A stretch of 60,446 bases of DNA from an uncultured Clostridia bacterium (lineage in GTDB: Bacteria; Bacillota; Clostridia; Christensenellales; DTU072): positions 1 through 60,446 of the forward strand of contig CALVNL010000005.1 of NCBI GenBank assembly GCA_944349655.1, read 5' to 3'. Positions 19,067 to 31,211 of the stretch are shown here, piece by piece (the stretch's first letter is position 1; each line of letters starts with the position of its first letter). A program made the translations under genes and the position numbers. The notes beneath the pieces are model-generated. The model was not told the DNA's origin. It did no database searches and saw nothing but the letters and a program-made list of their open reading frames with translations.

Positions 19067-21747
<2,681 letters not shown>

Positions 21748-21761
<14 letters not shown>

Positions 21762-23511
21762 CGTCCTTCTTTTCCTTAAAGAAATAGATATCGTAATTTA
21801 TTACGTCGGCGTCCAGCACCTTCCTTATTTCGTCGGTAAGAACGCCTTGTTTCCGTAGCGTTTTGAGATCGCTGTAATCGCTGTTGACGAAATACTGGTA
21901 AAACCCTTCCATATATTCCTTTATTCTCGCAATCGGAACGTTATCGATATGACCGTTGATAAGATAAAGATAAATTATCTGCTTATCCACGCTCATCGGC
22001 GCGCCCTCGGCTTGTTTCAGTATTTCGGTGATTTTACGCCCCGACTCAAGTATTTTTCCGGTGGACTCGTCCATATCGCCGCCGAACTGCGAAAAAACGG
22101 CAAGCTCACGGTAATGGGCAAGATCCAAACGAAGTTTGGAGGCGAGTTTTCTTATAGCGGGATACTGCGCGCTGCCGCCCACACGGCTGACCGAAAGTCC
22201 CACGTTTACGGCAGGTCTTACGCCGGAGTGGAAAAGTTCGCTTTCCAAATAAATCTGTCCGTCGGTTATGCTTATTACGTTGGTGGGGATATACTGCGAA
22301 ATATCCCCCGCCTGGGTTTCGATAAGCGGTAAAGCCGTCATACTGCCGCCGCCTAAATTGTCGGCAAGCTGAGCGCTCCTTTCCAGCAATCTGGAATGGA
22401 TATAGAACACGTCTCCCGGGTATGCTTCCCTCCCCGAAGGGCGTTTGAGAAGCAAACTTATGGTACGGTAAGCGTTGGCGTGTTTGGAAAGGTCGTCATA
22501 GACTATCAAAACGTCTTTTCCCTGCGACATAAACTCTTCGCCTATGGCACAGCCGGTGTAAGGCGCGATATATTGCAACGCGGCGTTGTCGTCGGCGGTA
22601 CTCGCCACTATGACGGTATTTTTCATAGCGTCGGCGTTTTTCAATCTTTCTATAATTTTTGCTATCGTACCCGCCCTTTGCCCTATGGCTACGTAAATAC
22701 AGATAACTCCGCTTTTACGCTGGTTGATTATGGCGTCCACGGCGATACTGGTTTTCCCTGTCTGACGGTCGCCTATTATAAGTTCTCTCTGCCCTCTGCC
22801 TATAGGGACCATACTGTCTATCGCCAGTATACCCGTCATAAGCGGACGGGAAACTTTGCTCCTTTCTATAATTCCCGGAGCCGGACTCTCTATCGGACGC
22901 CTTTTCTCGCAATGCAACACGCTGTTGCCGTCCAAAGGCTTGCCGAGAGGATTGACTACCCTGCCCAAAAGAGCGTCGCCTACCGGTACTTCGACGATTT
23001 TACCCGTACCTTTAACGATATCTCCGTATTCGATATTGCTGCCGTCGGAAATGAGCATGGCTTTCACGCAGTCCGTCAAAAGGTTCATGGCGATGGCGTA
23101 GCTGCCTTTATCTATCTCCAGAAGTTCGAAATACCGACATTCGGTCAGCCCTTCCACGGTGATTATTCCGTCTGCGCTTTCGGTTACTCTTCCGTATTCC
23201 ACCGAGCCGGCTTTCCCGTCGAGAGAATCGAGCAACTCCTCTTTCCAGTTTCCCGGAAGACTTTTTTTATCGGAAAGGATCTGGTTTATATACTCCTCGC
23301 CTTTACGCTTGAAATCGTATAATGCCGACGCCACGCTCGCATCGTAAATCCTTTCCCCGTCCTCGATAACGACTCCGCCTAAAAGATTTTTATCTTCCAG
23401 ATAACGGAAAAACAATTCCTCGTCCCCGTATTTTTTATAAAAAGCGTCCTCGATCTTTTTCCGCTGCTGAACGGTCAGCGAAAGAGAGGACTTTACAACG
23501 ATATTACGCAT
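21748..23511 (-). CDS. atpA: F-type ATP synthase subunit alpha with an N-terminally fused delta C-terminal domain
   Basis: GDRQTGKT, PSGREAYPGDVFY and YIPTNVISITDGQI; residues 1-68 resemble the delta/OSCP C-terminal domain (DKNLLGGVVIEDGERIYDASV). Confidence 0.92.
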
Positions 23512-24037
23512 TGTTTTCCTCTTTGTTTTTCTTGTCGAGAGACTGAACGAGATTTTCTATGAAAACGTCGTTGTCCGAACTTTTAAGCTCCCTTCCGAGA
23601 AGTTTTTCGGAAATATCCACCGCAAGCCCCGATAAAGAATAATAAAAATTCTCCCTTTCGTTCTGCTGAGCGTTTTTACTGTCTTCCACCGCTTTCTTAA
23701 TGATCTCTTCGGCTTCCTCGTGCGCTCCCGCAATAATTTCCTGCGTTTGCACCATCGCAAGGGCGTGGGCTTCTTCGGCGATTTTAACCGCCTCCTCACG
23801 GGCCTTGTCCAGCATTTCTTCGGCTTTACGGGAACTTTCTTCGGTGAACTTTAAGGAATTCCGGTACTTTTCTTCCGCCGCTTTATATTCCTCGCTGCGT
23901 TTCTTTATGAATTTTTTTACGGGTTTGTAAAGTAAAAGATAAAGACATACCACGAGTATAACGAAATTCAGAAGATGCAGTAAAAATTCCTGGACGGTAA
24001 GTCCGAGTATAATTTCCTTTGCAAAAAATTCCGCCAT
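23504..24037 (-). CDS. atpF: F-type ATP synthase subunit b
   Basis: N-terminal TM (LLNFVILVVCLYLLLYKPV) followed by a long charged helix. Confidence 0.92.
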   Translation of the reverse strand: MAEFFAKEIILGLTVQEFLLHLLNFVILVVCLYLLLYKPVKKFIKKRSEEYKAAEEKYRNSLKFTEESSRKAEEMLDKAREEAVKIAEEAHALAMVQTQEIIAGAHEEAEEIIKKAVEDSKNAQQNERENFYYSLSGLAVDISEKLLGRELKSSDNDVFIENLVQSLDKKNKEENNA

Positions 24038-24056
24038 TTTTACCTCTTAACTCAAA

Positions 24057-24305
24057 TTACACTTTAATAACCAACAATATAGCTATCAGCAAACCGTATA
24101 TGGCCGTGGTTTCGGCAAAAGCAAGTCCCAACATAAGCGTGGTACGTATTTTGCCTTCGGCTTCGGGTTGACGGGCGATGGCTTCGACGGCTTTGCCGGT
24201 AGCAATACCGATACCGATACCTGCGCCTACGCCGGTGAAAGCGGCCACTGCGGCGCCGATTGCGTAAAGAGCTTCGCTGGTTATCGCAGCTAACATGTAA
24301 AACAT
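24057..24305 (-). CDS. atpE: F-type ATP synthase subunit c
   Basis: GAGIGIG, ARQPE loop and AETTAIY; true ATG at 24305 after AAGGAGG. Confidence 0.95.
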
Positions 24306-24319
24306 AAAAATACCTCCTT

Positions 24320-25006
24320 TTACTCCGCCGCCTCGGCTATGAACAAAGTGGACAGAGTAGCGAAAATATACGCCTGGATAAAGGCGTGGAATAACGTGGT
24401 TATCACGCTTACCGCAACGGGTACGACGTAAGACGTAAACACGAAACTGTAACACAGTTCCATAATAAGCAATCCGCTTACGATACTTCCGAACAGACGG
24501 AAACTCATACTTACGGGAACTGCCAGATCGGTAATAAGGTTAATGGGATTCAGATAATGTTTGAAACGTTTTACGCCGTGTGACTTGAAACCGAAAAAGA
24601 AAATCAGTCCGAAGGTGGAAATACCCATCGCGAGACAAGCGTTGAGATCTGCCATTATGGGACGGAAACCGAGTAGTTCCACGAGCGTCCCGAGTCCGAC
24701 GTAAAGAGCGGCAACGAGGATATATCCTCCGACGAAGTTGCCGTATTTCCCCTCCGCCATATTGGAAAAACCGCCCACTATGGTTTCCAGAATACCCTGA
24801 ATTTTACCAGGGACGTTTTTCATGTGGCGAATGACTGTCAAACGAAGAATAACTGCTATTAAAATCAGAAAAACCGATACGGCAAAGGCGGTATAGAAAC
24901 TCGGATTGACCATAATATCCGTACCGAACAAACTGACCTTTTCGGGAGACAACGCTTCCGATAATCTGTCTCCCACCTCTTCGGCGAGGAGCAAAGAATT
25001 AAACAT
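24320..25006 (-). CDS. atpB: F-type ATP synthase subunit a
   Basis: [13 protein letters not shown] (essential Arg) and IQAYIF. Confidence 0.93.
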
Positions 25007-27419: not shown

Positions 27420-28052
27420 TTAAGTGCGGTTTTCTATCATCGATTTTACTTTCATAAGACGAATGGTATTAGACCTTTCGTTTTCGTCCAGTTTCATCGT
27501 GATATACTTGATGGTTTCCTCCAGTTGAGGTATCATAACGTATTCCAACGCGTTTACCCTGCGGCGGTTTTTTTCTATTTCGTCGGCGAGCATATTGCAG
27601 GCTTTTTCCACCTCGGCAAGATGTACCAGCTTGACCAGTACTTCGCTGAGGTTGGCTATGCTTCCGTCCAATTCCGCCGAAACTCCGGCAAAGGAATAAG
27701 GATAAAGTTCCTTCTTGTCTCCTTCTTTGACGGAAATCTGCGGTACCATTACGCTCATTACGTTTTTTTCCGAAGTTTCCAGCTCCACGCTGTAGCCGGG
27801 CATAGCCACGGCTTCTTCCATAACGGGTGCCGTCGTCACCGCACCGGCAAGCAAAAAAGAACGCAAAGCCGCGCTGACTTCCCCTTCGGTCTCTTCCCGC
27901 AGGCGTTTGTTTTCTTTTATAAGCACCATAAACTGCCTTATGGTTTCGTCCGCCTTGTCCTTCAGAAGTTTATGTCCTCTGACGGCGGTCTTGAGACGGG
28001 TTTTCAACCGTCTCAATTCCATTCTGGTCGGATTTACGTTTAGTCTCGCCAT
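27420..28052 (-). CDS. ntpD: V/A-type ATPase subunit D
   Basis: NVNPTRMEL, RGHKLLKDK and RRRVNALEYVMIP. Confidence 0.96.
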   Translation of the reverse strand: MARLNVNPTRMELRRLKTRLKTAVRGHKLLKDKADETIRQFMVLIKENKRLREETEGEVSAALRSFLLAGAVTTAPVMEEAVAMPGYSVELETSEKNVMSVMVPQISVKEGDKKELYPYSFAGVSAELDGSIANLSEVLVKLVHLAEVEKACNMLADEIEKNRRRVNALEYVMIPQLEETIKYITMKLDENERSNTIRLMKVKSMIENRT

Positions 28053-28067
28053 ATCTTCTCCAAAATA

Positions 28068-29441
28068 TTATTTTTTATCGTAAAATTCTTCCAGATACTC
28101 GTCTCTTATACGTTTGAGTTCGTTCCTCGGCAACAATTTCAGAAGGCTCCAACCTAAATTGAGAGTTTCCTCGATACTGCGGTTTTTCTGGAACCCTTGC
28201 GAAACGTACTGATTTTCGAATTCTTCTGCAAAAAGAGCAAACTTTCTGTCCACTTCCGTCAAAGCCGCTTCGCCGAGAATAGCCGAAAGTTCCTTGGCTT
28301 CCTTGCCTCGGGCGTATGCGCTGAACAACTGGTTCATCGTGTCGGCGTGGTCTTTGCGGGTCTTGCCTTTGCCGATACCCTTGTCCTTCAGACGGGAAAG
28401 CGAAGGCAATACGTCGATGGGAGGGGTGACACCTTTTTTGTAAAGTTCACGGCTCAATATGATCTGCCCTTCGGTTATATATCCCGTAAGGTCGGGAATG
28501 GGGTGGGTCTTGTCGTCTTCGGGCATGGTAAGGATAGGTATCTGAGTTATGGACCCTTTCTTTCCTCTGATACGCCCCGCCCTTTCGTATATGGTGGCAA
28601 GGTCGGTGTAAAGGTAACCCGGATAACCTCTTCTTCCCGGCACTTCCTTTCTCGCCGCGCTGACTTCACGCAACGCTTCGCAATAATTAGTTATGTCGGT
28701 GATGATGACCAGAACGTGCATATCGCATTCGAAAGCGAGGTACTCCGCCGCAGTCAAAGCCATACGGGGGGTGGCTATACGCTCTATAGCCGGGTCGTTT
28801 GCAAGGTTCATAAACAGTACCGTCCTGTCTATAGCCCCGGTTTTGCGGAAGTCGGAAATGAAATAATCCGCTTCCTCGAAGGTTATGCCTACCGCCGCAA
28901 ACACGACGGCGAATTTACTGTCGCTGTTGAGAACTTTCGCTTGTCTTGCTATCTGGGCGGCAAGTTCGGCGTGCGGAAGTCCCGACGCGCTGAACACGGG
29001 AAGTTTCTGCCCTCTTACGAGAGTGTTGAGCCCGTCTATAGCAGATATACCCGTCTGAATGAATTCGTCGGGGTAGTCGCGCGCCACGGGATTTATAGGT
29101 TGTCCGTTGATGTTTATCCTCTTGTCGGGGATTATGGGAGACCCGTTGTCTCTCGGTCTGCCCATTCCGTCGAATACCCTGCCCAGCATATCTTCGCTGA
29201 CGGCAAGTTCTATGCTCTTTCCGAGGAAACGGGCCTTTGCCGTGGATATCTTCAGTCCCGACGAACCCTCGAAAAGCTGTACCAAGGCTTTGTCGCCGTT
29301 GATTTCCAGAACCTTTCCGTTACGGCGTTCGCCGTTGTCCTGTTCTATCTCCACGAGTTCGTCGTACTTGACTCCTTCCACGCCCTCCACGAGCATCAAA
29401 GGTCCGACTACTTCTCTGATCGTCTTGTACTCCTTAAGCAT
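28068..29441 (-). CDS. ntpB: V/A-type ATPase subunit B
   Basis: [25 protein letters not shown] and [15 protein letters not shown]. Confidence 0.97.
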
Positions 29442-29450
29442 TGCGCCCTC

Positions 29451-31211
29451 CTATCCTATCAAATCGGAAATTTCTTTCTTCAGTTCTTTGTCTATCTCGT
29501 CGAAACGGGCAATATCCTTTTCTTCGATATACTTGGCTCTGCCGATTTTTTCACGCACGTCGAGAGTAATGACATCCTCGATATCCACTCCCTTTATCAA
29601 TGCGTCCTGACCCAGTTCATAGAAAGAAATTATAAGTTTCAGCATCCTTAACTGTTTATTTAAGGACGCGTAAGTGTCGATTTCGTGGAAAGCGTTCTGG
29701 TGCAGATAGTCTTCTCTGACGGTCTTTGCCGTTTCCATCGTAAGGCGGTCCTTGGCGCCCAACGCGTCCATACCCACCAACCTGACTATTTCGTCCAGCG
29801 TGGCTTCTTCCTGTAGGATACTCATGGCTTTACGTCTTAAGGCGTTCCACTCTTTCCCCAGCTTGTCGTCGTACCAGTCGGCAAGACGGTCGGCGTAAAG
29901 GGAATAACTCTGCAACCAGTCGATAGCCGGGAAGTGACGTTTATAGGCAAGGGAGGCGCTCAGTCCCCAGAAAACCTTTACTATACGCAAAGTCGCCTGG
30001 CTGACGGGTTCGCTGAGGTCGCCCCCGGGAGGGCTGACCGCACCTATTGCGGTGACGCTTCCGGTTTTGCCCGAACTTCCCAGTACCTTTACTATACCCG
30101 CTCTTTCGTAGAATTCGGCAAGACGGCTGGATAGATATGCCGGATACCCTTCTTCGCCGGGCATTTCTTCCAGACGGCCGCTCATTTCTCTCAGCGCTTC
30201 CGCCCAACGAGAAGTGGAGTCCGCCATTATGGCTACGTTGTAACCCATATCTCTGAAATATTCGGCTATGGTGATACCCGTATAGATACTCGCTTCACGG
30301 GCGGCAACGGGCATATCCGAGGTATTTGCGATAAGCACGGTACGCTTCATGAGCGGTTCGCCTGTTTTCGGGTCGGTAAGTTCGGGGAACTCGTTCAGAA
30401 CGTCGGTCATCTCGTTGCCGCGTTCGCCGCACCCTACGTAAACTATAATATCGGCGTCCGCCCATTTTGCAAGCTGGTGCTGCACTACGGTTTTTCCGCT
30501 TCCGAACGGTCCGGGTACCGCCGCCACGCCGCCTTTGGTTATGGGGAAGAAGGTATCGATAACTCTCTGTCCCGTCACCATAGGCATATCGGGCGCAAGT
30601 TTTTCGTGATAAGGTCTGCCTTTACGGACCGAACACTTCTGTACCATGGTAAGCGGAATTTCCTTCCCGTCGTCGGTTTTTATTTTCGCAACGACTTCGT
30701 CTATGGTGTATTCTCCGTCGGCTATCGCGGTAAGTTTGCCGCTGACTCCCACGGGGACCATTATGGAATGACGAATGAGGTTGTTTTCCTGCACGAAACC
30801 CACTTCGTCCCCCGGGATAAGCACGTCGCCTACCTTGGCGGTAGGATTGAATTTCCATTTTTTCTCGTGGTCGAGCGCTCTTACTTCCACACCTCTTCCG
30901 ATACGGTCGCCGCTTTTTTCTCTCAAAGCGTTCAGAGGTCTTTGTATTCCGTCAAAAATACTTTCTATAAGCCCCGGTCCCAGTTCCACGCTCAACGGCA
31001 TACCCGTGGAAATAACTTCTTCTCCCGGTCCTATGCCTCCCGTCTCCTCGTAAACCTGTATGGACGCTTTATCTCCTCTCAGCTCTATTATTTCTCCTAT
31101 AAGGTGCGACTTCGACACTCTGACGACGTCGAACATCTTACATTCGCCCATACCTCCGGCCACTATCAAAGGTCCGCTGACCTTAATTACCTTTCCGCTT
31201 ACATTGCTCAT
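29451..31211 (-). CDS. ntpA: V/A-type ATPase subunit A
   Basis: [17 protein letters not shown] and [13 protein letters not shown]. Confidence 0.97.

Follow-up and report, generated by a model that had tools for sequence, protein, structure and literature searches.

Sequence evidence for a natural fusion of the delta C-terminal domain to the alpha subunit in a Christensenellales F-type ATP synthase

The operon and its fused alpha gene

The window analysed here, by which we mean the whole 60,446-nucleotide stretch of contig CALVNL010000005.1 from an uncultured Clostridia bacterium of the order Christensenellales (assembly GCA_944349655.1), carries on its minus strand, at 19067-25006, a complete F-type ATP synthase operon whose alpha gene, atpA, encodes an additional domain at its N-terminus. 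According to the list of open reading frames and their Pfam matches, the genes are ordered atpB-E-F-A-G-D-C with neither atpH nor atpI among them, as a first-pass annotation of the window had reported. All seven genes are intact, lie on the minus strand and match their families: atpB (24320..25006) encodes Fo subunit a of 228 amino acids (PF00119 ATP-synt_A, E 4.1e-27); atpE (24057..24305) the 82-residue Fo subunit c (PF00137 ATP-synt_C, E 1.8e-19); atpF (23504..24037) the 177-residue subunit b (PF00430 ATP-synt_B at residues 18-147, E 1e-17); atpA (21748..23511) a 587-residue protein joining a delta C-terminal domain to alpha (PF00213 and TIGR00962); atpG (20898..21761) the 287-residue gamma (PF00231, E 1.4e-74); atpD (19486..20886) the 466-residue beta (PF00006, E 1.9e-73); and atpC (19067..19489) the 140-residue epsilon (PF02823, E 1.8e-17), which has retained its C-terminal helix domain (a weak PF00401 match). 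Subunit b is of normal length and the stop codon of its gene overlaps the atpA ATG by 8 nucleotides, again as first described; ATP-synt_B is the sole Pfam match of AtpF, which has no OSCP match and is thus not a fusion of b and delta.

Delta is normally a separate polypeptide, present in one copy per F1, and its N-terminal domain caps F1 and binds the alpha N-termini. Read from its sequence, atpA of the window is a natural deltaDeltaN-alpha fusion, in which an F1 alpha that is ordinary in all other respects carries the C-domain of delta (residues 4-69) at its N-terminus. The likeness of the N-terminus to the delta/OSCP C-terminal domain had been proposed earlier by eye, and a profile search bore it out: residues 4-69, encoded at 23305..23502 (minus strand), match positions 105-170 of the 172 positions of PF00213 (E 2.1e-10; 41.4 bits with a cut-off of 22.3), that is, the b-binding C-terminal domain of the profile at about 100-172. 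Residues 96-568 match TIGR00962 atpA with 690.5 bits, above the curated NCBIfam cut-off of 484.45, which places the protein in the alpha family, and the Pfam domains follow in the order of an alpha subunit (beta-barrel PF02874 at 105-170, nucleotide-binding PF00006 at 227-442 and C-terminal helical PF00306 at 449-568), the PF02874 match of 20.7 bits falling just below its cut-off of 20.9. The translation contains the P-loop GDRQTGKT, and alpha proper, with the stop codon, occupies 21748..23208 of the minus strand.

The first-pass annotation had described a linker free of Met between the two parts. Codons 2 to 140 of atpA indeed include no in-frame ATG, but the junction (residues 70-101; 23209..23304, minus strand) turned out not to be a linker: it consists of the last helix of delta, to about residue 80, and the N-terminal segment of alpha. 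Counted between the conserved S-V close to the end of the C-domain and the G-R-[VI] that opens the beta-barrel, 44 residues are found in the fused proteins and 43 in the free ones (16 in the delta tail and 27 in the alpha N-terminus), which indicates that the junction is alpha's own N-terminal segment joined by the loss of a stop codon and not a new linker. The LP..W motif of the junction is kept in all eight fused relatives. Upstream, AAAGAGGAAAACA immediately precedes the atpA ATG at 23511, and a Shine-Dalgarno-like GAGG (23518..23522, minus strand) lies about 7-10 nucleotides 5' of that codon.

The source genome (1.66 Mb in 72 contigs, 96.09% complete) holds no further PF00213 match above the cut-off and no atpI, PF03899 ATP-synt_I giving 0 matches at E<=1; the search for another atpH called for by the first-pass annotation was thus negative. 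No above-cut-off PF00213 match in the genome extends before profile position 88, and the atpA reading frame itself begins at the C-domain; the genome contains no coding sequence for the N-domain with which delta forms its cap. Nor is delta present as a separate polypeptide, its C-domain being in frame with alpha without a stop codon or a conserved internal start. A weak match at C3:33754-33993 (E 0.006; 16.6 bits) is below the cut-off, lies inside a 946-residue frame in the wrong context, and was rejected as a delta. The sequence therefore combines the three features of the deltaDeltaN-alpha type: the delta C-domain on the alpha N-terminus, no N-domain and no free delta. Matches to PF00006 over the cut-off are the F-type alpha and beta, one each, the V-type A and B, and one unrelated protein (98.7 bits, contig C10). 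With a lone F-type alpha gene and a lone delta-like sequence, each of the alphas in F1 is expected to bear a docking domain of its own, and an F1 built in this way would have three potential docking sites for b2, as the first-pass annotation had argued.

Integrity of the fused reading frame

No sign was found of a sequencing error hiding a stop codon. The exact 587-residue protein occurs on four contigs from NCBI, Logan and ENA, and its 90% cluster has 28 members, with all 15 of those listed being 587 residues long. Its repeated occurrence in many independent assemblies shows that the fused frame is not the product of a sequencing error. A search with residues 1-105, which reached close relatives only and is uninformative on other lineages, returned 12 proteins among 254 candidates, eleven of 585-587 residues and one a 404-residue piece; they are 66-99% identical, all contain both PF00213 and PF00006, and length and domains are unchanged in the relatives at 66-68% identity. 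The closest named records come from an uncultured Christensenella sp. (99% identity over 110 residues) and a Christensenellales bacterium, and the fused frame is open in all nine species of its clade.

Metatranscriptome contigs from four libraries of four studies, 92-99% alike, cover atpF and atpA in part, with the stretch across the junction (23144-23311) among the portions covered, and contain no indels. These contigs are fragments of relatives (the word shares in the four RNA libraries are small, 0.05-0.12), DNA carry-over is possible, and the parts that they leave uncovered carry no meaning; being free of indels, they show that the frame is kept in related strains but are not proof of transcription.

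Predicted structure and contact with subunit b

An AlphaFold2 model of AtpA, built from a 26-row alignment, has a mean predicted local distance difference test score (pLDDT) of 75. Residues 1-100 (pLDDT 71-89) are predicted to form four strands and two helices, the fold of the delta C-domain. Within them, the domain at 4-69 (pLDDT 81-89) has strands at 2-8, 33-39, 47-50 and 54-57 and a helix at 14-28, and the junction (pLDDT 71-76) has the helix at 60-80, the last of delta, and a short one at 89-96. When the model was compared with the PDB by Foldseek, the top three hits were chains I, K and J of 9JC1 (9jc1_I/K/J), an engineered fusion to which we return below; these align over 572-579 columns with an identity of 45-47% (E about 1e-54). 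Ordinary alphas ranked next, with about 475-525 columns in the alpha part only. In sequence, residues 5-70 of the window protein align with residues 110-174 of Bacillus PS3 delta and 7-72 of 9jc1_I. A profile made of 22 such domains found the 157-residue delta 9itj_S (E 1.5e-19), PS3 delta (1.1e-17) and 9jc1_I (6.3e-17); the first of these is probably the delta of the two-stalk Chloroflexus enzyme.

The interaction proposed for the fused domain was modelled with AtpA residues 1-175 and two copies of AtpF residues 105-177. The complex scored 0.61 (runs 0.63, 0.61 and 0.61) with 0.10 for the best of three controls, with a partner pLDDT of at least 74 and contact agreement of at least 95%; when the procedure was calibrated, 58 of 80 solved complexes came up to the mark, as did 2 of 110 mismatched pairs. 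As delta and b are a textbook solved pair, the score may reflect solved structures already known to the predictor and shows likeness, not proof of binding. The modelled contacts involve residues 8-27, 44-60 and 63-79 of the delta C-domain, 83-103 of the junction and 128-171 of b. Together with the sequence matches and the structural hits to 9JC1, the model with two b subunits supports the earlier proposal of a C-domain covalently held on each alpha, a lost N-domain and three potential b2 docking sites.

Comparison with known enzymes

Among solved structures, the engineered PS3 enzyme (9JC1; Nat Commun 2025;16:5410, PMC12229609) is nearest to the window protein. In PS3 deltaDeltaN-alpha, delta residues 2-104 were deleted and residues 105-178 fused to alpha, and complexes with one, two or three stalks were obtained; by electron cryomicroscopy, up to three stalks were seen, subunits a and b were present at 2.2-fold and 1.8-fold levels, and H+/ATP was 5.8 instead of 3.0 (PMC12229609). 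The authors concluded that the delta N-domain restricts the enzyme to one stalk. In both proteins the N-domain is absent and the C-domain sits on the alpha N-terminus, and, judging from the alignment of residues 5-70 with 7-72 of 9jc1_I, the natural protein begins within about two residues of the engineers' cut. The two differ in that the window protein is natural, that its junction is made of the delta tail and the alpha N-terminal segment and not of a designed short linker, and that the epsilon of its operon retains the C-terminal helix domain.

Natural fusions have also been described. Fused delta-alpha operons were named for Acidaminococcus fermentans and for UniProt G4Q3K6 and A0A1I2C5T3 (PMC12229609), and a survey preprint reports delta-alpha and b-delta fusions with a shortened delta (10.64898/2026.10.01.756066). 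These have the same layout as the window, with only the C-terminal part of delta on the alpha N-terminus, and were read as possible multi-stalk enzymes; they come from lineages other than the Christensenellales clade, and the likeness is one of described layout. By word search, Christensenellales is unnamed in the consulted text of both sources, and the main text of the preprint has no match for Christensenell, Clostridia or tandem, although the supplements may list the lineage. In Chloroflexus aurantiacus, a natural F-ATPase with two stalks and two a subunits has a shortened delta N-part (PNAS 2025, PMC12002316). There, too, the delta C-domain docks b, and the reduction of the N-part is accompanied by additional stalks and a subunits; its delta is a free subunit, however, whose four-helix N-domain dimerises to give delta2 b4 a2, whereas the window enzyme has no N-domain and its C-domain is covalently bound to alpha.

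The first-pass annotation had proposed a distinct stator design. In so far as mycobacterial b-delta fusions and N-ATPases are concerned, which likewise have rearranged stators, the distinction holds. A fusion of the mycobacterial type was rejected since b of the window is unfused (177 residues, PF00430 only), although the delta C-domain is recognisable by profile in the mycobacterial b-delta 7jg5_d (E 2e-13). An N-ATPase (TIGR03324 alt_F1F0) was rejected as the alpha scores 584.9 bits with that profile, below the cut-off of 750.5, while its atpA score exceeds the atpA cut-off, and the gene order, B-E-F-A-G-D-C, is that of the F-type and not the N-type. The design is not new, on the other hand: an article of 2025 both built it and pointed out natural cases (PMC12229609), the 2026 preprint surveyed it, and it is common in the order, as described next.

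Distribution and origin of the short delta

In an evenly drawn sample of 301 Christensenellales genomes, 169 have an OSCP match, and of the 183 matches we counted by hand the 150 listed. Among these 150, full-length delta accounts for 25 (profile about 1-172, frames of 174-200 residues), the C-domain alone for 60 in frames of 71-136 residues and for 63 in frames of 559-796 residues, and two are intermediate. Judged by these matches, delta without its N-domain is the rule in Christensenellales, an abundant gut order. All 20 large frames examined contain alpha, 19 as delta-C-alpha and one as b-delta-C-alpha. Frames of 751-796 residues in three genomes (G267, G173 and G053) were rejected as longer fusions, being open upstream of ordinary delta-C-alpha reading frames of 588-627 residues. 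Across a class sample of 250 genomes, full-length delta predominates outside the order, and the C-domain alone in frames of at least 590 residues occurs in 12 genomes of other orders, the two examined being a 596-residue delta-C-alpha (L047) and a 733-residue triple fusion (L048).

Within the genus of the window, ten species have a free reading frame between atpF and atpA, overlapping both and encoding the delta C-domain only. This mini-delta is 71-77 residues long in nine of the ten (among them L005:1504-1719, L007:1504-1725, L009:1525-1740, L014:1516-1740 and L029:1835-2059) and 131 residues in L004, where the C-domain is duplicated. Like the fused domain, with which it is homologous (28-35% identity), it holds the same place in the operon and lacks the N-domain; unlike it, it is a separate polypeptide, so that its attachment to F1 must be noncovalent and the number of copies per F1 is free to vary. 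In a tree of 33 alpha cores (quick IQ-TREE run, SH-aLRT support, midpoint root), which limits statements on the direction of change to the sister relation, the fused proteins of the window's group form a clade of nine rows with support 100, and its sister, with support 96, is the clade of ten rows from the same genus that has the free mini-delta (support 99). Fused proteins appear in two further places of the tree, as a clade of five rows (support 100) and as the lineage G028, and fusion or fission has thus occurred at least three times among the 33 rows. The window gene probably arose from a free gene for a mini-delta of 71-77 residues, overlapping atpA, which lost its stop codon.

Other arrangements of the same domain were seen in passing. 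Tandem C-domains are encoded at L004:1345-1740 (131 residues; domains at 1-53 and 58-128), and the 182-residue product of L027:1525-2073 has a strong C-domain at 113-179, a weaker one at 1-44 (independent E value 1e-6) and a doubtful one at 73-100. A search of 1.84 billion representatives with the delta C-domain profile gave 31,590 matches at E<=1e-3; the best 150 by score include 27 proteins of 121-166 residues with two matched stretches (P0017-P0065 and others) and 43 of 68-108 residues with one. No protein of about 590 residues is among the best 150 of the 31,590, which gives no count of the fused forms.

In another genome of the order (G201), L040:1102-1785 encodes a 227-residue b with a C-terminal delta C-domain (PF00430 at 9-137, PF00213 at 151-226), and an ordinary 503-residue alpha lies 3' of it. 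Triple fusions of a b-like membrane helix and coiled coil, the delta C-domain and alpha are found at L038:1094-3292 (minus strand; G282, same order; 732 residues) and L048:1011-3212 (G375, another order; 733 residues), with ATP-synt_B scoring 23.2 bits in the first, which falls short of the cut-off, and 35.5 bits in the second, which exceeds it. Their operons read a-c-b-(b-delta-alpha)-gamma-beta, and both genomes have a full-length delta elsewhere; as predicted from its domains, this type would place a membrane anchor of its own on every alpha. Finally, L044:1109-3148, L045:1116-3134 and L046:1007-3007 (minus strand), from other Clostridia orders, encode near-full-length delta-alpha fusions of 666-679 residues; in all three, which were examined individually, the OSCP match runs from profile position 10-35 to 172 and includes the N-domain. 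In such an F1, one axial site could not accommodate all three N-domains.

Discussion

How many stators an F-ATPase has determines its ion/ATP ratio, a basic bioenergetic constant, and, to our knowledge, every F-ATPase was until 2025 thought to have one. This view gave way with the engineered deltaDeltaN-alpha construct and a single natural enzyme with two stalks (PMC12229609; PMC12002316). The delta-alpha architecture and its multi-stalk reading are thus already in print (PMC12229609; 10.64898/2026.10.01.756066), and the window supplies, from a gut lineage that is abundant, a natural and well-supported example of an idea already described. What it adds is a pair of free and fused forms within a genus, together with evidence for N-domain loss as an order-wide rule. 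Sister species that differ only in having the mini-delta free or fused offer a ready comparison for learning whether fusion or N-domain loss sets the number of stalks.

As the engineered design occurs naturally in the window, we lean towards the view that the native enzyme can most likely hold more than one stator and hence has a raised ion/ATP ratio. Each docking domain could bind one b2 stalk along with the a subunit that belongs to it, and, with the three-fold axis free of the delta N-domain, assembly with more than one and up to three ion-conducting stators might follow. With extra stators, the ion/ATP ratio would rise and ATP could be made at low ion-motive force, which would suit a fermenter whose RnfD-like and OAD_beta-type pumps (located below) build small ion gradients. 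More tentatively, and as a proposal that we hold short of probable, most Christensenellales F-ATPases, being without the delta N-domain, may run two or three b2-a stators per c-ring and make ATP with about one half to one third of the customary ion-motive force, supplied by Rnf- and decarboxylase-type pumps; the free, tandem, alpha-fused, b-fused and b-delta-alpha-fused forms would then be alternative ways of holding several delta C-domains per F1.

Several observations weigh against a multi-stalk native enzyme. Our literature search found no stoichiometry, structure or activity data for natural deltaDeltaN-alpha enzymes; the engineered PS3 enzyme is itself a mixture of one-, two- and three-stalk particles, two on average (PMC12229609); and, as near-full-length delta-alpha fusions exist, fusion alone need not mean several stalks. 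The status of delta and b as a textbook pair, which limits the weight of the model, belongs here too, as does the neighbouring V/A-type ATPase operon, which makes any physiological role ascribed to the F-type enzyme tentative. The main rival explanation is a single stalk in spite of three docking domains, with two overlapping genes fused to neutral or merely stabilising effect, and two C-domains staying empty as the supply of a and b, the geometry of the c-ring or the order of assembly limits the enzyme to one stator. Fusion and fission of delta with its neighbours are frequent and look easy, as judged from the three or more fused clades in the alpha tree, and both b-delta (L040) and full-length delta-alpha fusions occur, the additional N-domains of the latter being hardly all usable; single-stalk particles were also seen with the engineered enzyme (PMC12229609). 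Set against this, removal of delta-N and fusion of delta-C were alone enough to give PS3 two stalks on average (PMC12229609), tandem two-domain mini-deltas exist, and the order-wide loss of the N-domain, counted as 125 of the 150 matches listed, suggests a selected architecture, not drift. We regard the single stalk as a possibility to be reckoned with, if a rather doubtful one.

A further explanation is that alpha is mixed or processed, internal initiation (for example at codon 93) or cleavage at the junction yielding ordinary alpha and a free or absent mini-delta in a conventional 3:1-like arrangement. That the free mini-deltas of the sister species work speaks for this. No internal ATG up to codon 140 and no conserved internal start were found; an in-frame TTG at codon 93 (23233-23235) directly follows a GAGGAG and may, judging from the sequence, yield some minor unfused alpha, which counts against the multi-stalk enzyme as well. 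This TTG, however, abuts the GAGGAG with zero spacing and is not conserved in the seven fused relatives compared, while the GAGG of the main ATG is well spaced. Six of eight fused sequences have an in-frame ATG at codon 86 or 87; it is absent from the window and from one relative (G005), and the 14 nucleotides upstream of it show no clear Shine-Dalgarno sequence. With the fused frame open in nine of nine species of the clade, we consider mixed or processed alpha improbable. Least credible of all is that the fusion is an artefact of assembly or sequencing, or belongs to a decaying operon made redundant by the neighbouring V/A-type ATPase. The genome is a draft in 72 contigs and the V/A-type set of A, B and D (27420-31211) looks complete, but the identical protein in three sources and its 28-member cluster, the shared length and domains of relatives at 66-68% identity, seven intact genes, an alpha well over the TIGR00962 cut-off and the indel-free metatranscriptome contigs across the junction, for all that they do not prove transcription, leave this explanation next to no credit.

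Neighbouring genes and ion pumps

The V/A-type ATPase genes lie 2.4 kb upstream of the F-type operon, on the minus strand at 27420-31211 and probably beyond, and comprise D (27420-28052), B (28068-29441) and A (29451-31211). With both sets in the window, the organism has two rotary ATPases. In the F-type operon, helix 2 of the translated c subunit bears E-T-T-x-x-Y, which might be a sign of Na+ specificity. Elsewhere in the genome, an RnfD/NqrB-family protein is encoded at G000:C8:1729-2667 (PF03116, E 1.8e-84) and an OAD_beta-type decarboxylase beta subunit at G000:C1:156833-158137 (PF03977, E 1.3e-151); the two are candidate low-energy ion pumps that might supply the ATP synthase.

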